Under the pieces are notes generated by a model that saw only the letters and a list, made by a program, of their open reading frames with translations, made no database searches and had not been told where the DNA came from. A stretch of 55,934 nucleotides of DNA from Candidatus Aenigmatarchaeota archaeon (GTDB taxonomy: Archaea > Aenigmatarchaeota > Aenigmatarchaeia > CG10238-14 > SpSt-28). Position 1 is the stretch's first letter, and each line of letters opens with the position of its first letter. The DNA lies in contig JAWBAC010000002.1 of NCBI GenBank assembly GCA_038997355.1, positions 1 through 55,934 on the forward strand. Reading direction: 5' to 3'. A program made the position numbers and the translations under genes. Below, in pieces: positions 1-55,265 of the stretch.

Positions 1-178
1 TTCTGGCCTTTGCTCTAGCTATAGAAGCTGCAGCAACAAACAGACTATCTACCCAAGTTAATCTTTCCTCTGGATCTTTTGCTAACTCTAAAACATCTTT
101 TCTAAACAAAGTAGCAAAAAATAAGTAGTTCTGCAACTCTTCTATCTCTTTTTTACCTACAGGGTTTAAAGGTATCAT
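1..178 (-). CDS. Hypothetical protein, N-terminal fragment (continues past the left edge)
   Basis: Not in the ORF track because it is truncated. The minus-strand ATG at 176-178 overlaps the TGA of the upstream KaiC-like gene as ATGA. The frame stays open to position 1 ([58 protein letters not shown]...). No family recognised. Confidence 0.35.
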
Positions 179-897
179 AATTTAACTATTCTATCTTTAT
201 GAACTATTATTCCTTTGTCTGTTATTTCAAACTCATGCCTTTTCATAGAATGAGAAGTTCCTCTCATTTTCCAAATTATTAAAGATCTTTTCAGTTCGCC
301 ATTAATTTCATCTAAATCTAATCTAATTATTCCATCTACTCCATGTTCAACTCCAGGACCACCGAAACCTCTTTCTCCTACACTTATTTGGCTAACAAAA
401 ATGCTAGTAGTACCTAAACCAGCAAAAACTCTCTTCAAAGTTAATACTATTTTTCTGGCAACACTAGGCTTATCTATGTATAATGATGTAACACTATCAA
501 TAACAACTCTTTTAGCATTAACATTATTTACAGCTTCTCTTACAACATCTATAAACTCTCTTAAATCTGTCAAATCTTGTACTATATATTTTTCATATTC
601 TTTTGCTTTTCCAATTCCACTACTAAATGCATCTACCAAAGCAAACATGTTTTTCTCTTCATATGGTTTAACATTCCAACCAAATTGTAACATATTTTGT
701 CTAACTTGAGCTGGATGTTCTTCTAGTGCAACATATACACCATTTTCTTCCATCTGTAATCCATTCCATAAAAACTGCTGTGCAAAAATAGTTTTTCCAG
801 TACCTGGTCCGCCGCTTAATAAAACAACATTTCTTTCTGGAATTCCTCCATTTAACAAATCATCTAAACCAGGTATTCCAGTCTTTACTCTTCTCAT
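175..897 (-). CDS. KaiC/RadB-like RecA-superfamily ATPase (single-domain archaeal KaiC homolog)
   Basis: N-terminus [34 protein letters not shown] (Walker A). Walker B-like [10 protein letters not shown]. The length and layout are typical of archaeal KaiC-type ATPases. Confidence 0.85.
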
Positions 898-911
898 AAA
901 TTAAATATTGA

Positions 912-3641
912 TCAAAAATATAAACTCTTTGATTTTGCATTAGAAGAATAAAATACTATTTCTCCATTGCAAATATGACAAATACCATTTAATGTAGGTC
1001 TTCTATATACAGTAGAGCAGTTATTACAAATAAAGCCAATTAAATCTTCATACTTTATTTTATCTGCTATCCCTTTTGAAACTTGTTTTTCTTCGCTACC
1101 ATTACCATTTTTTATTGTATCTTTTATTAAAGAAAGTAAAGAAATTTGCCTGCTTCCTGTTATGAATTGAGAAGATGATATACCTATAACATTAAAAATT
1201 CTTTCTAGCGGAGGCAATAATTGATGATAAATATAATAATCTGCATCTATAGGTATTTTGTTTTTCTTAACGTATTCTGGAGTTTCTGCTCTTTCAACAA
1301 TTTTTTGTGGACCAGCAACTATTACATAACTTACTCTATCTCCAACTCCAGGAATATTTGTTTCGCCTCTTCTTATCATCTTTTTAACCAATTCTATGTG
1401 TGGTTGCTGTCCTTTGTATTTATCTAAGGGTCTAGAGATTGATTTTACAATTGCTAACTTTTCTACATCTATTTCATTGTTTTTCAACTTTCTAAAAATC
1501 TCTCTAACATATTCAAAAGCTTTTTTCTTATCTCCTTCTATCAACAAAATTTCTATTACTTTAGATAAAGTTTCTGTAACTAAATCACACCAATCTCTTC
1601 TAACAGTTTCTACTCCTTTCATAACTATTTTGCCTTTGTCATTCACATCTTCGAATAAGTATCCAACATATTTCTTTTTTGTTATGAATATTATTTTCTT
1701 CATCACACCTTCTATTTTCATCTTTATGTATTCTGGAGTTTTTGAATTTACATATTCTTCTACTTTTTTTCCTATTTCAAAAACTTTTTCAAAACTTTCT
1801 ACATTATTTCCAACTTTTATCATTACAGAATCAGTATCTCCATAAACAACTTCGTAACCAAGCTCTTTTTCTACAATATCTTTTACTCTTGTTATCCAAA
1901 ATCTACCATAAGCAGTTATAGTATTAGCTATGTCAGAAACAAAAAATCTAGCCCTTATATATCCGCTATATCCATAAAATGCGTTTGCTAAAAGCTTTAG
2001 TGCTAGCTGTTTTGCATCCAACAAATTTTTCTTTATTGGATCTTGCTCTTTTTTCATTAAACTTTTTACTTTATCTCTTTCTTCAATCAATCTCTTTAAA
2101 ACTCTTGGAAAAATTCCTTCTCTTACATTTTTAGAAACAAAATAAGTTTTAATTGGAGATTCTATAATTTCTAAACCTTCTACTTTATTTTTTAAATATG
2201 TTGTAGGACAAATATTATATTGAATTATTAAACTAGGATATAGCGACTTAAAATCTAAATAAACAACGTTTTCATGCAAACCTGTTTTGGGTTCTAATAC
2301 TATTGCTCCTTTTACTTCCTCTTTTTCTCTTTCTTTTAATTCTTTTTTGCTTGGTTTGTTAGGTATAACTATATCTTCTTTATTAAACTCTCTTAATAAG
2401 AATTGCTCTATTCTCGATGATTCACTCCCACCTAAAGAATCTTGCAATAGTAAACCACTTAATCTAGAAATTTCTATGTATTGAGAAATAAAATCTCTAC
2501 TCAGCATTATTTCTAAAACTAATTCTGCATCGGTTTTTGCATATTTTATCAATCTTAACAAATCTTCCTTATTTCCTTTCCACAATTTTATTATTTCACT
2601 TTTATCGACATCCTCCTTAGTCTTACCTATAAGAATTTGAGAAATATCTCCCAAACCTAATCTTTTTGTTTTTAACATACCTTTCTTAGAAAACTCTTTA
2701 AGTATTTCATAGAAATCTATTATTACTCTTCCAACAATAGAGTTTTTATATCTTTCTTCTCCAACTTTAGAAACTTTTGCAGATTTTTTTGCTCTACCTA
2801 AGTATGGTTTTATTTTGTTAATTCTACATCTCTCTACAATATAAGGAATATCGAAATTGTTAATGTTATATCCTATCAAAAAATCAGGATCAAACTTCTT
2901 TACTATTTCTAAAAACTTTTTTAACATTTCCGCTTCGCTATCAAAACTTAATATATAATCATATTCTTTCTCAAAATCAACTTTTTTTGATAATAAAACT
3001 AGGTTTTTCTTTCCTTCGAACTCTGGATAAAAAGCCAAAGAAATTATTGATATTGGATGTGTCTTTACGTCAGGAATTCCTGTTTCATTTGCAACCTCTA
3101 TATCAAAAGAGAGTATTTTAAAGTTAGGTAACTTATTTTCATCGATTTCTTCAAATTTAGTTGCTTCAAATTTTAAATCAGTGAAAACTGTTTTGGTATG
3201 ATTAACAAATTCTCCTTCTGCAACATACCATTTACATCCAGCGAGATTATTATCTGCCATGAATCTATACTTGAAAAGTATATCAGCTTCGAATGTTTTT
3301 TCAACAAAATCTTGAGAATGTAAATCTTCTCTAATTAATGGAACTTTTGAGGGATTTTTAAGAGTTATTTTATAGAGTTTTGTTTTTTCTTTTTGATATC
3401 CAATGGGCAAAAACTTTTCTACTTTCTCAACTTTTACTATTAAATTTTTATATTTTTTCTCTAGCAAATCTAAAAATTTTTCTTCACTATTATCTTTTAT
3501 TTTGACATAAAAATAAGGAAAAAAGTTTCTGACAAAAATCGTAATAGAATTATTAGAATCTGTTTTTCCATAAATTCTTATTAAAGGTACGTCATCTACA
3601 ATATCATAATCTACATCCAATAAGAAAAAACTAACTTTCAT
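912..3641 (-). CDS. polB: Family-B DNA polymerase (PolB-1) with an extra C-terminal zinc-ribbon tail
   Basis: Exo I SFDIEV, Exo II GYNINNFDIPYI, Exo III YAKTDAELV. Pol A DFKSLYPSLII, Pol B KLLANAFYGYSGY, Pol C YGDTDS. After the usual C-terminal region (SRQISLLSLIKD) there are 68 more residues, including CNNC-x12-CHIC (nt 969-1028). Confidence 0.95.
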   Translation of the reverse strand: MKVSFFLLDVDYDIVDDVPLIRIYGKTDSNNSITIFVRNFFPYFYVKIKDNSEEKFLDLLEKKYKNLIVKVEKVEKFLPIGYQKEKTKLYKITLKNPSKVPLIREDLHSQDFVEKTFEADILFKYRFMADNNLAGCKWYVAEGEFVNHTKTVFTDLKFEATKFEEIDENKLPNFKILSFDIEVANETGIPDVKTHPISIISLAFYPEFEGKKNLVLLSKKVDFEKEYDYILSFDSEAEMLKKFLEIVKKFDPDFLIGYNINNFDIPYIVERCRINKIKPYLGRAKKSAKVSKVGEERYKNSIVGRVIIDFYEILKEFSKKGMLKTKRLGLGDISQILIGKTKEDVDKSEIIKLWKGNKEDLLRLIKYAKTDAELVLEIMLSRDFISQYIEISRLSGLLLQDSLGGSESSRIEQFLLREFNKEDIVIPNKPSKKELKEREKEEVKGAIVLEPKTGLHENVVYLDFKSLYPSLIIQYNICPTTYLKNKVEGLEIIESPIKTYFVSKNVREGIFPRVLKRLIEERDKVKSLMKKEQDPIKKNLLDAKQLALKLLANAFYGYSGYIRARFFVSDIANTITAYGRFWITRVKDIVEKELGYEVVYGDTDSVMIKVGNNVESFEKVFEIGKKVEEYVNSKTPEYIKMKIEGVMKKIIFITKKKYVGYLFEDVNDKGKIVMKGVETVRRDWCDLVTETLSKVIEILLIEGDKKKAFEYVREIFRKLKNNEIDVEKLAIVKSISRPLDKYKGQQPHIELVKKMIRRGETNIPGVGDRVSYVIVAGPQKIVERAETPEYVKKNKIPIDADYYIYHQLLPPLERIFNVIGISSSQFITGSRQISLLSLIKDTIKNGNGSEEKQVSKGIADKIKYEDLIGFICNNCSTVYRRPTLNGICHICNGEIVFYSSNAKSKSLYF

Positions 3642-3673: not shown

Positions 3674-4684
3674 TTACTCTACTAAATTGTATATTTTTCT
3701 TTCCTTTAAATCCAATAAACATCCTTTAATATTGGAAGTTATTTCTGCAACAATAGGATTTGATTCAGATATCATAGCTTCTTTATTTTGCGAATTATAA
3801 AGTATAAAAACATTTGGTAATTGAAAAATTAATGCCAAATCTTCCTTATATTTCACAAACTCTTCAAATTTTGGTGTTACTAGTCTTGTCTTTAAAAAGA
3901 AATCTAGATCGAAATTTACTTTACTTACATCTATCGCAACAAAGAAAAAGTTTTCTATGTAAAACTTATGAATGTAAACTTTTTTATCTAAATAAACATT
4001 GTTTCCATCTATCTTATTTTCATCAGCTAAATATATGTTTATATCAGTTTGAAAATTATTACTTAGTTTTTCATAAAAAAATCCTATTTTTAATTCTAAC
4101 TGCGAATTTTGAGTAGATATTTTTTCAAGCTCTTTTTGTTTAAATTCGGGAAAAATTATATCTTCACAAACTATCTTAGAATCTTCAAAAAAACATTTTA
4201 CTCCAATTACAACATCTTCCTTCAAATATTTTAAATGTTTTTTAGCTTTTTCAGATAGAATTAATTCTACTTTTGACGACAAATCTTCTATCACAACTTT
4301 CTCGTCACTAACAGAATACACAATTCCTATTACTGAAAATGATTTAAACCTTTTAGATATCTTGTTTATAGAAATTGGATTGAAAAAAATAATATCGTTT
4401 TTTATTATTTCAGAAAGTTTTTCATATCTTTTTTTAAGCAGTTCTATGTAATCTATTATTTTTATTTCGTTGTATAAAGTCGGAAAAGACATAGAAATTT
4501 TAAAACTTTTCCTTTTTCTTTCTTTTAGAATTTTTTCTATATAATCCTTCTCTAGTACTTTTGGCTCTTGAACTTTTGGTAAAATTTCGAGAAGAAGTTT
4601 AAAATCTTCATCACTTAACGATGAAATATATTCAACATCTCTAACCAAATATCCTTTTTTTAAAAGTTCTAGTATTCTATTCAT
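3674..4684 (-). CDS. DNA polymerase B-subunit / PolD-DP1-like protein with a truncated, apparently inactivated phosphodiesterase domain
   Basis: The N-terminal helical segment (MNRILELLKKGYLVRDVEYISSLSDEDFKLLLEIL) resembles DP1 N-termini. The OB-fold segment is FSVIGIVYSVSDEKVVIEDLSSKVELIL...EDVVIGVKCFFEDSKIVCEDIIFPE. The C-terminal ~150 aa resemble the distal half of the calcineurin-like PDE fold (FLKTRLVTP, DLALIFQLPNVFILYNS). The DxH, GDxxDG and GNHD metal-binding motifs are missing. Assigned by eye, not by search. Confidence 0.5.
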   Translation of the reverse strand: MNRILELLKKGYLVRDVEYISSLSDEDFKLLLEILPKVQEPKVLEKDYIEKILKERKRKSFKISMSFPTLYNEIKIIDYIELLKKRYEKLSEIIKNDIIFFNPISINKISKRFKSFSVIGIVYSVSDEKVVIEDLSSKVELILSEKAKKHLKYLKEDVVIGVKCFFEDSKIVCEDIIFPEFKQKELEKISTQNSQLELKIGFFYEKLSNNFQTDINIYLADENKIDGNNVYLDKKVYIHKFYIENFFFVAIDVSKVNFDLDFFLKTRLVTPKFEEFVKYKEDLALIFQLPNVFILYNSQNKEAMISESNPIVAEITSNIKGCLLDLKERKIYNLVE

Positions 4685-4688
4685 TTAA

Positions 4689-4955
4689 TTACCTTTTAGT
4701 AGTTTCCAAATAATACAAAGTTATACCTTTTTCATTAGCTTTTTTTGAGTGTGGAGTCTCCATTTTTTTAACTCTATCTAGTCTAACAAGCTCTTCTAAA
4801 TATTTTTTTGTTGTATTCCAACTAATCTTTTTGTTTAACCTTTCAGAAATAAACATTGTAATCTTTCTAACATTAGAAGGATATGGATGTAGAGAAAAGT
4901 ATTCTTCGATCAGGCTATAAATTTTAAATCTTAGTGAAGGTCTTCCCCTTTTCAT
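4689..4955 (-). CDS. Small winged-helix DNA-binding protein
   Basis: 88 aa. A helix-turn-helix-wing pattern (NVRKITMFISERL...SWNTTKKYLEELVRLDRVKK...GITLYYL). It is the first gene of the apparent wHTH/B-subunit-like/PolB-1 operon and ends 4 nt before the next gene. Confidence 0.55.
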   Translation of the reverse strand: MKRGRPSLRFKIYSLIEEYFSLHPYPSNVRKITMFISERLNKKISWNTTKKYLEELVRLDRVKKMETPHSKKANEKGITLYYLETTKR

Positions 4956-5187
4956 AATAGTATTTTTTATAAACTTTCATAATATAGTTTGTGGAAGTAT
5001 ATAATAACTAAAATTAAAATAATTTGCAAAATTATTTCAGTTTCTAAAAGTTTTTATCTTAAAAATTAAAAATATAACACAGTTATAAAATTTATTAAAA
5101 ATAATTGAAAATTTTTTAATTCGCAATAAAAACAGATACACAATTTTTATTTGTTGTTAAAATGATTACACTACACAAAAAACCATT

Positions 5188-5334
5188 TGACAATTCATAA
5201 ATAATATTTGAGTGTTCATACTAAATATTTGAAAATTCATAAAAAATGTAGGAAATTTCATAAAAAAAGTCGGAAAATTCACAAAAAATATTTGAATGTT
5301 CATAAAAAATATCAGAAAGTTTTCAGAAATTGTA
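5188..5334. repeat. Tandem 21-bp iteron-like repeat array (6 good units plus 1 degenerate)
   Basis: Units: tgacaattcataaataatatt (5188), tgagtgttcatactaaatatt (5209), tgaaaattcataaaaaatgta (5230), ggaaatttcataaaaaaagtc (5251), ggaaaattcacaaaaaatatt (5272), tgaatgttcataaaaaatatc (5293), agaaagttttcagaaattgta (5314). The TTCAT core starts at 5194, 5215, 5236, 5257, 5278 and 5299, exactly 21 bp apart. Confidence 0.9.
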
Positions 5335-5350
5335 AGATAGTTGAAAAACA

Positions 5351-5362
5351 ATTTTTTATGAA
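5351..5362. repeat. Inverted copy of the iteron core
   Basis: attttttatgaa is the exact reverse complement of the 12-nt core TTCATAAAAAAT found in the units at 5236 and 5299. Confidence 0.75.
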
Positions 5363-5403
5363 AAATTTCAAATTTTTTACTTCGATAAAATAAAAACTAA
5401 CTG

Positions 5404-5676
5404 CTAGTAAAACTCTCTTATAAAATCTTTTATAAATTCAATTAGTTTCTCTCCTTTTTTTGTTAATCGAATTACTTTGTTTCTTCCATGTTTTTCAAAT
5501 TCTATAATATCCATCTCATATAACAATTTTAACATGTTTAAAGTATGTGAATAAGTTGTTTGAGTTTTTCTGTATATTTGTGTTATGTTTTTTTCTTTCA
5601 AATCGGCTAGTGATAACAATAATTTGAATGGTTTTTCTTTAAACAAAAAATCAATGATAGATTTTTTACTCGGCAT
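5404..5676 (-). CDS. ArsR/MarR-like winged-helix transcriptional regulator
   Basis: 90 aa. LLLSLADLKEKNITQIYRKTQTTYSHTLNMLKLLYEMDIIEFEKHGRNKVIRLTKKG is a classic wHTH layout. It overlaps the Bud32 3' end by 11 nt. Confidence 0.6.
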   Translation of the reverse strand: MPSKKSIIDFLFKEKPFKLLLSLADLKEKNITQIYRKTQTTYSHTLNMLKLLYEMDIIEFEKHGRNKVIRLTKKGEKLIEFIKDFIREFY

Positions 5677-34554: not shown

Positions 34555-35145
34555 ATGAAATATACAATTTATTTACTTTTAACAATTTTCGTAGTTTTCA
34601 TTCTTCAAATAATTATAGTTAATTTTACAGAGACGTTTTCTTTAATTCCTAGAAAGGTGCTTGAAGGAGAAGTGTGGAGAATTTTTACATCTATTTTTTT
34701 GCATGGAGATTTTTTGCATTTATTCTATAATTCTTTCGCTCTTTTAATTTTCGCTCCTATATTAGAGAATACTATTGGCCATAGAAGATTTTTGATTGTA
34801 TTTTTTACTAGCGGAATTTTAGGAAGTATCGCATATTTATTAACAAGCTTAGTAATTAATGATCTCGATATACCAGCTTTAGGGGCTAGTGGAGCTATCT
34901 ATGGAGTAATAGGAACATTAGCAATATTAAGGCCAACAACGATAGTTTTTGTTTATTTTATTCCTGTACCTTTATTATTTTTAGCAATGTTTTGGATTAT
35001 TACAGAATCCTTAGGAACTTTACTACAATTGTTTGGTTTAAAAACTTCTATAGCATATCAAGCCCATCTCGCAGGATTGTTATTCGGAATTTTTTATGGA
35101 TACAGATTGAAAGAGAGAGGCATAAAAATTAGATATTATTTTTGA
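34555..35145 (+). CDS. Rhomboid-family intramembrane serine protease
   Basis: WRIFTSIFLHGDFLHLFYN, catalytic GASGAIYG and HLAGLLFG. Confidence 0.9.
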   Translation: MKYTIYLLLTIFVVFILQIIIVNFTETFSLIPRKVLEGEVWRIFTSIFLHGDFLHLFYNSFALLIFAPILENTIGHRRFLIVFFTSGILGSIAYLLTSLVINDLDIPALGASGAIYGVIGTLAILRPTTIVFVYFIPVPLLFLAMFWIITESLGTLLQLFGLKTSIAYQAHLAGLLFGIFYGYRLKERGIKIRYYF

Positions 35146-37583
35146 AAGAACTTAGCTAAAGAGGTTTGTTTAGTTCCTCTTAATATATCGCTTTCACTAA
35201 CATTTAAAACTGAAAGCACTCTTAAAGCTGCAGGTAATATTTGATTTGAAATATAATATTCAACATCCACATCTTCTTTTTTTACAAACAGAGCATATTC
35301 AGCTTTTTCAGAAATAGAACTTCCAAACTTAGTTATTACAAAAGGTATTATACTCCCTTCGGATATTTTTATTCCTCTTTGTATAGCTTTTTTTGCTGCA
35401 ATAACATGAGGGCTTATTTGTTTGTACTCACTAATGTTTTTTGTTAATTGTTCATATATGGTTACATCTTCTAACTTAAACTCATAATTTCTTAATTTTT
35501 GAATTACATTTCTAACATATTCTATAGCTTTTTTAACATCATTCTCTTTAAGTACTATTTCTAGAACATCTCTTTGTACAATTTTTGCTAATTTACACCA
35601 ATCTCTTCTTACAGTTTCGAAACCTCTAATCTCTAAGGAACCATCTTCACTTAATAAGGCATATCTCTTTTTAGCACCAGCTTCTTTCTCTCTCTTCTTT
35701 ACAAAAATTCCTCTGACATAAAAACCTCTAAATTCTAATTCCATTTTACTTTTCAAAGAAGAATTCACTAAATTTAAAAAGTTTTGTGCAGATTTTATAA
35801 AATCTTCTTTATTGAGCTTTGAAGTTATCATTAAAGAATCTGTATCTCCATATATTATTTCAAAATCGAAATTCTTAGCTAATTCAGCAACTTTTTTAAT
35901 ATAGCTTCTTTCGAATGCTGTAACACTTTCTGCACATTCTCTTTTATACCATCTCGCACCAACATAACCCAAATATCCATATGTTGCGTTTGCAAGAATT
36001 TTTAGAGAATACTGTAAAGCATCTAGTAATTTATATTCTTCACTATTTTTATCTAAATTTTTCATTAACTTTTTTATTCTTGCCCTTTCATCAATTAAAA
36101 ATTCTAAATGCTTAGGTATGAAACCTTTTCTTAATGTACAAAAGTGATAGTTTAGTTCTGGCACTTTATTTTCTGCTTTACAAACTTCATGCTCACAATT
36201 AAAAGTATCTATTGAAATGTTGTGTGCAACTATTATTGTAGGATATAGAGATTTAAAATCAAGCACAATTATATTTTCATGTATTCCTGTTTTTGGCTCA
36301 AAAACAAAAGCACCTTTATATGGAGCTTTTAATCTTCTTATTTGTAATTCTTCGTGCTTAGGTCTATTAGGCGCAATTTGATTATCATAGTATGCGTTTT
36401 TTAGAAGATATGCTTCTACTAGCTGAGAATATGTATTTCTACAAACATCAAACAAGCTTAATGATGTTAGTTTAGATAAAGCTATCATTTGCGGTAAAAA
36501 TATTTCTAAAAGCTTTAATACTAATTCACAATCCCAAACATTGTATTCTATTGCTTTTCTTATATCAACTCCTTGTTTAAATATAAGTTGCATTTCCTCA
36601 AAGCTTAACTCTTTTTTTCCATAGCCCAAAAATTCTTTTGCTACAGCATCTAAGGTTAAAACTTCAGTTTTTATGTTTGGAGATAAAATATGATCAACAA
36701 AAACGTATAAATCCAAATAAACTCTTCCAGGAATTTTAAAAGATTTTACCCAACCTCTCTTTACAGCTTTTATTTTTGAATTTTCTTTACCTATGTTTAA
36801 TTCTAATCCATATTTTTCTGCTTTTTCTTTTAATAAAGGTATATCGAAACCATCCGTATTATATCCAACCAGAATGTCTGGATCCTTTTCTTTTATTATC
36901 TCTATAAATCTTTTTATTAATTCTTTTTCTGTTTTAAAATTTTCTACATTATCAAATTTTTCTCCAAAATCCAAACTTAGTGTTATTTTATATCCATCGT
37001 TTCCAACTATAGATATTAATGCAATCTTTTCAGAATCTTTTTCTTCAAAGATTTCAATATCAAATGCATATATTTTTAATTTTGGTAGTTTGTTAATTTC
37101 TATTTTTTCAATCTTTTCTGCCAAAATCTTTTCATCTTTTTTTATTCCATAAACTTTTAACCAACTTGAAGGCAAAACATTATTATCAATTAAAAATCTT
37201 CTGTAAAAAGGAATATCATATTCAAAAGTTTCTAAAACTTCGCTAAAATTATCTTTTATAAATTTCCTTACTTTTGGGATTTTTCTAGGATTGTTAATAG
37301 TAATTTTTATTACTTTCACTTCTTTTCCCAAAAACTCTTTTCTTAATATTTCAACATTTTCTATTTTTGCTTCTGGAATTTTTGTTTTTTTAATTTTTTC
37401 TATAAATTCTGGAATTAACTCTTCTTTAACTAATACATAGAAATATGGCAAAAAGCCTTTATAATATACAACTAAATTATTACCTTCTAAATCTTTACAA
37501 AACATTCTTATTATTGGCTTAAATTCTTTAGTAAGTACATAGTCAATATCTAATAGAAATACTTCTTTTTCTACTTTTTCCAT
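35136..37583 (-). CDS. polB: Family-B DNA polymerase (PolB-2), canonical length with C-terminal PIP box
   Basis: Exo I AFDIEI, Exo II GYNTDGFDIPLL, Exo III YNVWDCELV. Pol A DFKSLYPTIIV, Pol B KILANATYGYLGY, Pol C YGDTDS. It ends in QTSLAKFFQK (Qxx[L]xxFF). Confidence 0.95.
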   Translation of the reverse strand: MEKVEKEVFLLDIDYVLTKEFKPIIRMFCKDLEGNNLVVYYKGFLPYFYVLVKEELIPEFIEKIKKTKIPEAKIENVEILRKEFLGKEVKVIKITINNPRKIPKVRKFIKDNFSEVLETFEYDIPFYRRFLIDNNVLPSSWLKVYGIKKDEKILAEKIEKIEINKLPKLKIYAFDIEIFEEKDSEKIALISIVGNDGYKITLSLDFGEKFDNVENFKTEKELIKRFIEIIKEKDPDILVGYNTDGFDIPLLKEKAEKYGLELNIGKENSKIKAVKRGWVKSFKIPGRVYLDLYVFVDHILSPNIKTEVLTLDAVAKEFLGYGKKELSFEEMQLIFKQGVDIRKAIEYNVWDCELVLKLLEIFLPQMIALSKLTSLSLFDVCRNTYSQLVEAYLLKNAYYDNQIAPNRPKHEELQIRRLKAPYKGAFVFEPKTGIHENIIVLDFKSLYPTIIVAHNISIDTFNCEHEVCKAENKVPELNYHFCTLRKGFIPKHLEFLIDERARIKKLMKNLDKNSEEYKLLDALQYSLKILANATYGYLGYVGARWYKRECAESVTAFERSYIKKVAELAKNFDFEIIYGDTDSLMITSKLNKEDFIKSAQNFLNLVNSSLKSKMELEFRGFYVRGIFVKKREKEAGAKKRYALLSEDGSLEIRGFETVRRDWCKLAKIVQRDVLEIVLKENDVKKAIEYVRNVIQKLRNYEFKLEDVTIYEQLTKNISEYKQISPHVIAAKKAIQRGIKISEGSIIPFVITKFGSSISEKAEYALFVKKEDVDVEYYISNQILPAALRVLSVLNVSESDILRGTKQTSLAKFFQK

Positions 37584-38594: not shown

Positions 38595-38739
38595 AAATAT
38601 TTCTATTAAATATAAATATGCTTAAAAATTAAAATTTTTCGTTCAATAAAATATATAAAAAAGTAGAGAAATTAATATATATGGGTAACGTCAATAAATA
38701 AATATTCGAACCTTCATAAACTCACTGCTCGGTAATAAC

Positions 38740-54446: not shown

Positions 54447-55265
54447 TTATATATTTATTTTTTCCAAAACAATTGAAGAGAGTTCTTTTTCAACTATTTT
54501 TTTAAAGTTTTTTAGTAAAAAATCATCTACATCGTAATGGAACTTTTTGTTTATTAGTTTAAATATATTGTTTTTTAAATTTTCATCTATACGCAATTCT
54601 AAGAAATTTTTAAATTTTTTAATAGTCAACACAGGCTTATTAAGAACTGCAGCATAAAGTATTTCTCTGTAAAATTTGTTTTTGGAGAAATCAAGTATTA
54701 TATCAACATACTTCAAAAGTTTTATTAATTCATTTCTTTCTAAATTCTTTTTTATAAATCTTATATTTTTTGAATTAGATACATTTTCATTAAATATCCC
54801 ATATATAAAAATTTCAAAATCTTCTAATAACGAAGTTATCAATCCTATTATTTCAAAAGTTAACTTTTCAGTAAGGATTAATAGCGAATTTTTTTGCTTT
54901 AGTTGATATAAATTTTCTATTTTATCTTTTCTAACTATTTCATCATTTATAACAAACGGAAAATAAATTATGTTATCTAAAAAGACTTTTTCTTTTCTGT
55001 AAACATAAACTTTATCTTTTTGTGCAAGATTTATATCATCTATAACATTTATAACTTTTTTTAGTTCGAAATTGTTATCAGATAAATTAATAATTATATC
55101 AACTTCATCATAAAAATTTTTTAGTTCTTCGAAAGACAAAAGAAAAATATTATTTATCCTTCTTTTTTCAATTTCATTTAAAGAAAAATAAAAAAATTCA
55201 AAAGGTAAAAATCTTAAACCATCTATTAAATCGATATCATACTCGCTTATTATTCCAACTTTCAT
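54447..55265 (-). CDS. Hypothetical protein (possible Rossmann-like/GT-B half-like C-terminal region)
   Basis: 272 aa, packed between the PqqD-like and MinD-like genes. The segment NIRFIKK.LERNELIKLLKYVDIILDFS...EILYAAVLNKPVLT vaguely resembles a GT-B C-terminal domain. Not assignable by eye. Confidence 0.4.
   Translation of the reverse strand: MKVGIISEYDIDLIDGLRFLPFEFFYFSLNEIEKRRINNIFLLSFEELKNFYDEVDIIINLSDNNFELKKVINVIDDINLAQKDKVYVYRKEKVFLDNIIYFPFVINDEIVRKDKIENLYQLKQKNSLLILTEKLTFEIIGLITSLLEDFEIFIYGIFNENVSNSKNIRFIKKNLERNELIKLLKYVDIILDFSKNKFYREILYAAVLNKPVLTIKKFKNFLELRIDENLKNNIFKLINKKFHYDVDDFLLKNFKKIVEKELSSIVLEKINI

Follow-up and report, generated by a model that had tools for sequence, protein, structure and literature searches.

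What is the intergenic stretch at the head of the replicase operon of an Aenigmatarchaeota chromosome for? The DNA analysed here (the window) is an archaeal stretch of 55,934 nucleotides, AT-rich (27% GC) and assigned to the Aenigmatarchaeota (DPANN), and at positions 4956-5403 it contains a gap between two small winged-helix genes. Since both of these genes lie on the minus strand, the gap is downstream of the one at 5404-5676 and upstream of the one at 4689-4955. A first-pass annotation of this DNA, made from the sequence alone, had called it the largest gap of the window, which is true once two repeat-generated open reading frames (ORFs) with TTG starts are discounted, and had proposed that it was either a replication origin or an operator of the polymerase operon. 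We find that it holds a composite module that is conserved well beyond this genome and recurs outside the operon, and we see an even chance that it is a replicator-type module bound by the 88-aa protein family encoded next to it, either a chromosomal origin or one that was captured from a mobile element. The parts of the module, and the operon that follows it, are these:

5177-5323, minus strand: seven 21-bp units arranged head to tail, which read TGAAnnTTC-nnAn-ATTTTTTA in the operon sense (minus strand); identified by Tandem Repeats Finder (TRF), spacing and a weight matrix

4979-5176, no strand: A/T-rich spacer of 198 bp with 15.7% GC, a candidate unwinding region or loop

5073-5087, no strand: central palindrome TATAACACAGTTATA (TATAAC-N3-GTTATA), about halfway from the innermost unit of the array to the inverted unit

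4962-4978, plus strand: single inverted unit, reading ATTTTTTATAAACTTTC, with its near end 6 nt upstream of the 88-aa gene's ATG

5351-5378, plus strand: distal inverted copy of the unit, found among inverted-repeat pairs; lineage-specific

4689-4955, minus strand: 88-aa protein with an N-terminal MKRGRP and a winged helix-turn-helix (alignment and AlphaFold2 (AF2) model), first gene of the replicase operon

3674-4684, minus strand: degenerate DP1, or polymerase B-subunit-like protein, of 336 aa (E=6e-15 to NCBIfam NF003118, the PolD small subunit, a match that falls short of the curated cut-off)

912-3641, minus strand: family-B DNA polymerase (PolB) of 909 aa, 'B6-aenigma1' type (Pfam DNA_pol_B and exonuclease domains)

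The array is the strongest periodic signal of the 56-kb window. TRF reports a 21-bp array at 5178-5312 with 6.4 copies and a score of 130, the highest of the 97 rows for the window, and the start-to-start spacings are exactly 21, 21, 21 and 21. In 150-bp windows, identity at a lag of 21 peaks at 0.72 at position 5186 (window mean 0.33, sd 0.05), and at the other lags from 18 to 24 it never exceeds 0.54 anywhere in the window. Each unit joins a GAAnnTTC palindrome to a T6 (A6) tract; the palindrome and the T-run are the informative positions of the unit, which on the minus (operon) strand can equally be written ATTTTTTA-TGAAnnTTC-nnnn. A weight matrix built on 29 units from five genomes places the seven unit starts at 5177, 5198, 5219, 5240, 5261, 5282 and 5303 with scores of 13-25 bits, and one or two degenerate units continue beyond them up to ~5345. 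Scores of at least 17 bits are reached at six places in the window, all of them within the array (0.06 in shuffled sequence), and the matrix finds no strong unit outside the array in the 56 kb. The spacing of the units equals two helical turns. With its exact spacing and top TRF score, the head-to-tail 21-bp array of the first-pass annotation is therefore real, the seven units being placed here at 5177-5323. The 12-nt core on which that description was built can be recovered at 5194, 5236, 5257, 5278 and 5299 with no or one mismatch, and the copy given for 5215 is a poor one; over the whole window this 12-mer is only mildly enriched (16 matches with at most one mismatch against 10 expected), and it is the clustering and phasing that carry the signal.

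One weak single unit (13.3 bits) was seen elsewhere in the window, at 38696-38716 on the minus strand (GAACCTTC beside an A/T tract), in the interval between 38595 and 38739 and ~25-45 nt upstream of the start of a TFB gene (38740). Perhaps the 88-aa protein has another target there, or it may be a chance occurrence in an A/T-rich promoter.

On the operon side of the array, the spacer overlaps the lowest-GC 200 bp of the window (4955-5154, 14% GC). The earlier description of 4956-5187 as near G/C-free overstated the case, the measured value being 15.5% GC in a 27%-GC genome. The 15-nt palindrome TATAAC-N3-GTTATA has a single exact match in the window, and the inverted unit, beyond the spacer, overlaps the 88-aa gene's inferred core promoter. 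Across ~190 kb, the 17-mer with up to one or two mismatches is confined to arrays and the promoter-proximal site, and full units are confined to the module. It is this copy, at 4962-4978 by the 88-aa start codon, that relatives conserve. The first-pass annotation missed both it and the palindrome at 5073-5087, which belongs to the conserved module, and pointed instead to an inverted 12-mer at 5351-5362. An exact copy does exist there, but it is specific to the strain group and not conserved in relatives: the distal copy at 5351-5378 is mutated in strain contig L002 and is not seen upstream of the arrays in L007-L010 (L-numbers are labels of the comparison loci and contigs fetched for this analysis).

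Conservation was followed through relatives retrieved by their PolB, which come from hot-spring metagenome-assembled genomes of Aenigmatarchaeota; strain contigs nearly identical to the window were found in several metagenome runs. L010 (92% PolB identity), L008 (74%), L007 and L009 (73% each) and L012 (47%) all carry an array of the same consensus with a period of 21-22 bp at the same place, ahead of the small gene, the DP1-like gene and PolB. Further homologous arrays occupy the same position in L019, L020 and L036, which came from a metagenome pattern scan, in L045, which came from a distant protein homologue, and in L065. The anatomy that is kept consists of five to seven units at 21 bp, an A/T-rich spacer of ~170-280 bp, the central palindrome and at least one unit beyond the spacer. 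Within the spacer the sequence is unconserved among relatives apart from the palindrome, which occurs once per related locus and always inside the spacer; from it to the innermost unit there are 87-156 bp on each side in most lineages, and the layout is mirror-like. L045 is a 50%-GC relative whose genes have 51-59% GC, yet its array has 36% and its spacer 32% GC.

The promoter-proximal inverted unit is equally persistent. In the window, L007-L010, L012, L019, L020, L036 and L045 it lies 3-20 nt upstream of the ATG, where it either separates a TATA-like box from the start codon or falls on the TATA position, the promoter being placed by these TATA-like boxes. L011 is uninformative, its contig beginning 202 bp before the DP1-like gene, and L066 and L067 hold distant paralogues in other settings. 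A look at related genomes, which the first-pass annotation had named as a check, shows array, spacer and proximal unit kept down to 47% PolB identity. On these comparative grounds the gap holds a composite cis-module that is demonstrably under selection, and its association with one small winged-helix family is equally established.

The candidate binder of the module is the 88-aa protein. Its AF2 model has three helices and a two-strand wing (predicted local distance difference test (pLDDT) score 86); family members are of ~85 aa and have in common an SWNT..KYL.EL helix and an LPHSK wing, and in the alignment M-K-R-G-R-P is invariant or nearly so in the 11 close and most of the distant members. 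An AT-hook has a GRP core with basic flanks. The arm has a basic-flanked GRP and no secondary structure in its N-terminal ten residues (modelled at lower confidence), and an A6/T6 tract stands in every unit; we infer that the KRGRP arm binds A/T tracts. The family is small, with 11 close homologues and 51 representative clusters among 1.84 billion proteins. Foldseek returned generic winged-helix matches only (E ~1e-3 to 1e-2), to PadR and MarR/ZitR and also to the winged helices of Cdc6/Orc1, and searches of Pfam, NCBIfam, PHROGs and PDB gave no match to a Rep family. The idea that the protein is a detached Orc1/Cdc6 winged helix was set aside: the Cdc6/Orc1 chains retrieved (7tjh_I, 2qby_B) match no better than PadR/MarR, and the weak resemblance reported by Pfam points to the Hop2 winged helix and not Cdc6_C. 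The gene on the other side of the gap is a different case:

5404-5676, minus strand: 90-aa winged-helix protein (HTH_45, ArsR or Sso10a-like; Pfam/NCBIfam), whose stop codon borders the module

Both winged-helix genes had been read as bracketing partners of the element. The 88-aa gene is indeed tied to it, but the 90-aa gene is replaced in deeper relatives. It is present in closer relatives only (L001-L004, L019, L020, L036); L012 has in its place a 133-aa gene without detectable similarity to it, and at that place L045 and L065 have genes with a similar C-terminus. The 90-aa gene is therefore not a constant partner of the module.

The module is not bound to the polymerase operon either. Complete copies away from any polymerase gene were found by metagenome scan in L017, L038 and L054, with three to four units per side, a T/A-rich centre and the palindrome TATAACACTGTTATA. 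In L017 the copy lies between the 3' ends of two annotated genes, and no gene of the winged-helix family is within reach of the module in L017 and L038. A virus-like region, L053, encodes a ParB-like protein ~4 kb from the module and an 841-aa protein that matches tape-measure families, and the context common to L017, L038 and L053 is probably that of a tailed (pro)virus, to judge from these gene matches. A conserved 35-aa ORF (MEKQYRLKIRLPP...) is found at 1066-1173 in L017, ~2117-2224 in L038 and 4972-5079 in L053; ~25 nt separate its start from the final unit of this virus-like module, the differences among its copies are conservative or synonymous, and in L053 it is a called gene. Directly beside the module of L038, at 512-1621 on the minus strand, there is an inserted gene of TnpB/Cas12f-like type (OrfB_IS605 and TNB domains), and the left neighbour in L017 is a different one. 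The ends of L038 have no terminal overlap, and the contig is not closable with L053.

More distant members of the winged-helix family (E ~1e-6 to 1e-7) are encoded on mobile-element-like contigs, L047-L050 (60% GC), L068 and L069. Directly downstream of the homologue, the intergenic region of these contigs contains the exact palindrome, as ATAACAGTGTTAT or ATAACACTGTTAT, flanked by an inverted unit and by three units, GAAAAyGTTTGCAnAAA, phased at 21-22 bp. We estimate from base composition that a chance match to the palindrome in one 340-bp gap at 60% GC has a probability of ~1e-4, and in the 471 kb of fetched loci all 16 exact matches to ATAAC-N3-GTTAT fall in modules, including those of the 60%-GC L047-L050. 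Since the palindrome is found with distant homologues while the units differ, the palindrome tracks the protein family and the phased A-tract units co-vary with the lineage. Both of the contigs that are sufficiently long, L047 and L069, also have an Orc1/Cdc6-type AAA+ gene ~0.7-1 kb from the module; the encoded proteins match Cdc6_lid above the cut-off and are 48% identical to each other.

The gene order shared by L047 and L069 is a 127-130-aa gene, the winged-helix homologue, the module, a 204-239-aa gene and the convergent Orc1/Cdc6-like gene. The 204-239-aa gene is Sigma70_r4-like in L047, and in L069 an HTH_17/excisionase-like gene and ThiF are present in addition. At 9218-9342 of L047, where the retrieved sequence ends, there is an inverted repeat of 60 nt (98% complementary, 5-nt loop), perhaps the hairpin end of the element or else an artefact of assembly. 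Pattern scans of IMG/VR gave no true module, L051 and L052 being look-alike repeats or chance matches, and L016, L028, L043, L044 and other single-unit metagenome loci were discarded as look-alike repeats or chance matches in unrelated DNA. The window itself contains a second ATAAC-N3-GTTAT 13-mer, ATAACGAAGTTAT at 54827-54839, inside an ORF at 54447-55265 and with no units nearby, which is probably a chance match.

The operon that follows the module in the window runs, on the minus strand, from the 88-aa gene through the 336-aa DP1-like gene to the 909-aa PolB. The 336-aa protein also has weak matches to proteins with PF04042 plus PF00149, and PolB carries at its C-terminus a CxxC...CxxC zinc motif, that is, a DP2-type tail. 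This is the known replicase of Aenigmatarchaeota, in which DP2 is lost, DP1 is inactivated and PolB has a DP2-type tail (PMC7544198). An interaction between DP1 and PolB has been demonstrated by two-hybrid assay (PMC12680538), and both studies place this replicase near the root of eukaryotic Pol alpha, delta and epsilon (PMC7544198; PMC12680538). The small gene, the array, control of the operon and the start of replication go unmentioned in the searched passages of PMC7544198 and PMC12680538.

Several lines of comparison make us rank an origin first among the explanations of the module. It moves as a unit, independent of the promoter that it occupies in the window. In mobile elements it lies downstream of the winged-helix gene, and in L047-L050, L068 and L069 it therefore cannot be the promoter operator of that gene. 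Its plan is that of Sulfolobus oriC1, with sites, an A/T-rich region with a central motif, and sites again (PMC12141716), and relative to dp1 it holds the place that oriC has in several euryarchaeal orders (PMC2643942, PMC10989965). It recurs near replication genes or in a virus in three settings: the replicase operon, the neighbourhood of Orc1/Cdc6-like genes and the probable virus. Its deep conservation, the confinement of its units and palindrome to such modules and the low GC of its spacer count on the same side. Taken by themselves, the copies outside the operon and beside Orc1/Cdc6-like genes make the comparative evidence lean towards an origin.

How such an origin might work can be sketched from its parts. 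The recognition helix of the 88-aa protein would occupy the major groove, and the KRGRP arm at its N-terminus would reach into the minor groove of the A-tract alongside; with units spaced by two turns, the bound proteins would lie on one face of the DNA and could assemble cooperatively. The binder may read either type of site, the palindrome, which is constant with the family, or the phased units, which change with the lineage. Complexes flanking the spacer and the occupant of the central palindrome would then jointly destabilize the A/T-rich DNA or mark it for helicase loading, possibly with the participation of an Orc1/Cdc6 encoded elsewhere in the genome. The promoter-proximal unit would at the same time make the operon of 88-aa protein, DP1-like protein and PolB autoregulated.

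Set beside known origins, the module shares a plan with several and belongs to none. In Sulfolobus, oriC1 lies beside orc1-1 and is made up of ORB3 (ORB, origin recognition box), a DNA unwinding element with a central motif termed ucm, and ORB2; ucm is bound by the 111-aa protein UBP (PMC12141716). As there, sites flank an A/T-rich stretch with a short conserved motif in its middle, a DNA-binding gene is adjacent and one site is near its promoter. Unlike those of oriC1, the units are GAAnnTTC with an A-tract and not ORBs, one side is a seven-fold phased array, and the adjacent gene, known here from its sequence, encodes an 88-aa winged helix and not the AAA+ protein Orc1. UBP is also set apart by its description, a saddle-shaped strand-swapped dimer that contacts DNA through beta-hairpins, whereas the model of the 88-aa protein shows a winged helix. 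Among Thermococcales, Halobacteriales and Methanosarcinales, the place of oriC is beside cdc6 and dp1 (PMC2643942; PMC10989965). The window resembles such oriC-cdc6-dp1(-dp2) loci in having a repeat region at the head of an operon of a DNA-binding gene, a polymerase small subunit and a catalytic subunit (PMC2643942, PMC10989965, PMC1904270), but its first gene is not cdc6, its repeats are neither ORBs nor mini-ORBs, a PolB with a DP2-like zinc tail replaces DP2, and DP1 is degenerate (PMC7544198). As to ORB origins in general, the mini-ORB consensus (TTCC...GAA, for example TTCCAGTGGAA) does not match the units, in which the GAA and TTC halves stand in the opposite order; the hexamers TGGAAA or TTTCCA in L012, L038 and L045 are too short to count as an ORB. 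Inverted sites flanking an A/T-rich region are present here (the array versus 4962-4978 across 198 bp of 15.7% GC) and, with the exception of L065, in the relatives. An adjacent orc1/cdc6 is not, while the distant versions of the module in L047 and L069 have one within ~1 kb. With consensus and adjacency both failing, the module of the window, judged by its sequence, is not a member of the ORB/Orc1 family.

Origins outside that family offer partial parallels. Iteron plasmid origins (such as those of RepA, pi and TrfA) have direct repeats of ~20 bp at about two turns, an A/T-rich region, an inverted copy at the promoter and autoregulation. The module has, likewise, seven units at exactly 21 bp beside the lowest-GC stretch of the window, where an iteron array calls for at least four repeats of ~17-22 bp, and an inverted copy of the unit at the inferred promoter of the adjacent winged-helix gene. 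Iteron Reps, however, have two winged-helix domains and form defined families, and the 88-aa protein has one winged helix and an AT-hook-like arm with no Rep family match; its host is an archaeal chromosome, the module has a central palindrome, and there are no DnaA boxes. The 88-aa protein not being a Rep by any family search, the module is not one of the known Rep-iteron families. Of Sulfolobus origins outside the Orc1 type, oriC3 is thought to have been captured from an extrachromosomal element, and its WhiP is larger, Cdt1-like and has two winged helices. WhiP is a non-Orc1 winged-helix initiator (PMC12141716). The module resembles the oriC3/WhiP pair in the non-Orc1 winged-helix gene beside the candidate origin and in its link to mobile elements; no sequence or fold link between WhiP and the 88-aa family was detected.

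A good deal weighs against an origin nonetheless. The units are unlike ORB and mini-ORB, whose core TTCC...GAA they do not match (consensus from PMC1904270), and no Orc1/Cdc6 is nearby, as Pfam, and for some of them NCBIfam too, finds none among the window ORFs of at least 300 aa, the smaller ones having been partly scanned; the first-pass annotation had stated both points correctly. An Orc1/Cdc6 with its own origin is probably present elsewhere in the genome, and a second origin is seldom needed in a sub-megabase genome. The 88-aa protein is a single winged helix that lacks an ATPase and any part known to recruit a helicase, its fold is as good a match to ordinary regulators (PadR, MarR) as to Orc/Cdc6 winged helices, and the unit at its promoter is exactly what a plain autoregulator would show. 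The genes on both sides of the module are co-directional. Over the window, GC and AT skew follow gene strand and show nothing at 5.2 kb, and skew at four-fold sites over ~4 kb on each side in five genomes has no sign change in a test of low power, with errors about as large as the expected effect (GC skew 0.075+-0.069 versus 0.130+-0.068; AT skew -0.096+-0.025 versus -0.028+-0.024). Finally, L065 departs from the common anatomy, since its array and proximal unit point the same way, its spacer measures ~110 bp and the palindrome is missing, and in the virus-like copy the polarity of the units towards the centre is opposite to that in the operon, although both are mirror-symmetric.

Much of this would be at home in an operator array with no role in initiation, in which the 88-aa protein is an autoregulator that fills the seven upstream sites cooperatively and loops across the spacer to the proximal site, with a second factor on the palindrome at the loop apex, as in a Gal-type repressosome, and so sets the level of the polymerase holoenzyme. 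A unit 3-20 nt upstream of the ATG, at the TATA box or between a TATA-like box and the ATG, is in the classical place of an archaeal repressor; the regulator gene heads the operon and its fold is nearest to PadR and MarR regulators; L065 is a plain upstream array with proximal sites, without palindrome or long spacer; the low-power test saw no skew switch; autoregulated small winged-helix genes are far commoner than origins; and a looped repressosome would explain the symmetry too. We nevertheless consider an operator alone, the most serious rival, less likely than an origin. A site on the regulator's own core promoter is present in the Aenigmatarchaeota operons but not in L047, L068, L069, L017 or L038: in the first three the module is downstream of the homologous gene, off its promoter, and the two-sided module of L017, between two 3' ends, has only the 35-aa ORF to control. 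Five to seven phased sites, a spacer of low GC even in a GC-rich genome and an invariant palindrome exceed what a promoter switch needs, and the module recurs beside replication genes in three unrelated settings. The first-pass proposal of origin or operator is borne out in part: the element is a selected, protein-binding-type module tied to a winged-helix gene, and what falls away is the inverted copy that the annotation had chosen and the 90-aa partner.

In TubR/tubC and ParR/parC systems a small protein coats phased direct repeats and regulates its own promoter. The repeats might in the same manner be coated by the winged-helix protein as an adaptor, and the module be a centromere-like or chromosome-organizing site that segregates or anchors the chromosome and related viruses and plasmids. 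Phased direct repeats, a small DNA-binding gene and a promoter site are, as is generally known, the standard plan of type II and III partition; a ParB-like protein is encoded ~4 kb from the module in the virus-like context, and chromosome and mobile elements have the module in common. Unlike tubC and parC, however, the module has no ParA, ParM or TubZ-type motor gene next to it in any context examined. A single-domain KaiC-like protein, whose position is not conserved in L007, is the one NTPase encoded close by in the window, the conserved neighbours are replication genes, and a long A/T-rich spacer with a central palindrome is foreign to known centromeres; we regard a centromere as improbable. 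Least probable of all, and in our view a slender chance, is that the array is a by-product: a stack of oligo-T terminators insulating the operon, tandem TATA-like promoters of a transcript not yet annotated, or a tandem duplication that is neutral. Archaeal transcription termination is signalled by oligo-T, each unit has a T6 run in the operon sense, and the array comes close after the stop codon of the upstream gene: the six or seven T6 runs begin ~80 nt past it in the window, and the array starts 12 nt past it in L007, overlaps it in L012 and is up to ~170 nt away among the loci. The last unit also stands, like a TATA box, ~25 nt before the conserved 35-aa ORF in L017 and L038. But L065, and L038 on one side, have the reverse orientation, so that the T-runs are not always on the sense strand; termination needs neither GAAnnTTC nor an exact 21-bp phase; Rfam gives no match, and outside the palindrome the spacer is unconserved in sequence; and neutral repeats would not last down to 47% PolB identity or within a 50%-GC genome. 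Independently of what the array is for, its T6 runs could also stop read-through from the RadA-Bud32-wHTH genes upstream, an orientation that is not kept in L065.

The wider neighbourhood of the gap is rich in genes of DNA metabolism, Pfam and NCBIfam identifying a histone, RPA, RadA, Bud32, two family-B polymerases and the RFC large subunit. The second family-B polymerase (815 aa, 35136-37583, minus strand) is 31 kb away from the first. The two 61-aa TTG-start ORFs, at 5166-5351 on the minus strand and 5208-5393 on the plus strand, are products of the repeats and not to be annotated as genes, and a search of Rfam over 4800-5500, which bears on an RNA element, gave no match. The operon is followed by one further gene:

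175-897, minus strand: single-domain KaiC-like ATPase of 240 aa, directly after PolB (TIGR03877, above the cut-off)

Identification of this gene as RadB, which would have paralleled the Pyrococcus order cdc6-dp1-dp2-radB, was rejected in favour of the KaiC-like assignment, and in L007 no KaiC-like gene is found at the position after PolB.

Were the module an origin, a wider proposal could be made, which we offer tentatively and consider possible rather than probable. Proteins of ~85 aa with an AT-hook arm and one winged helix would be 'mini-initiators' which, with their own replicator of ATAAC-N3-GTTAT and phased A-tract units, define origins common to Aenigmatarchaeota chromosomes and to archaeal viruses and mobile elements; no adjacent Orc1/Cdc6 would be needed, and the eukaryote-like replicase operon would have come from a mobile element or travel with its own origin.

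The searched literature contains no description of the array, of the 88-aa family or of any Aenigmatarchaeota origin, and the replicase encoded by the operon figures in discussion as a model of how the eukaryotic polymerases arose. The conserved 450-bp module and the 88-aa protein form a compact, testable pair of putative replicator and binder in an uncultured DPANN lineage. Were the module an operator only, it would still be an unusually elaborate control region for a replicative polymerase. Were it an origin, the 88-aa family would be the second non-Orc1 specifier of an archaeal origin after WhiP, the sharing of an origin between host and virus would be demonstrated, and a mobile-element source of this replicase would gain support.

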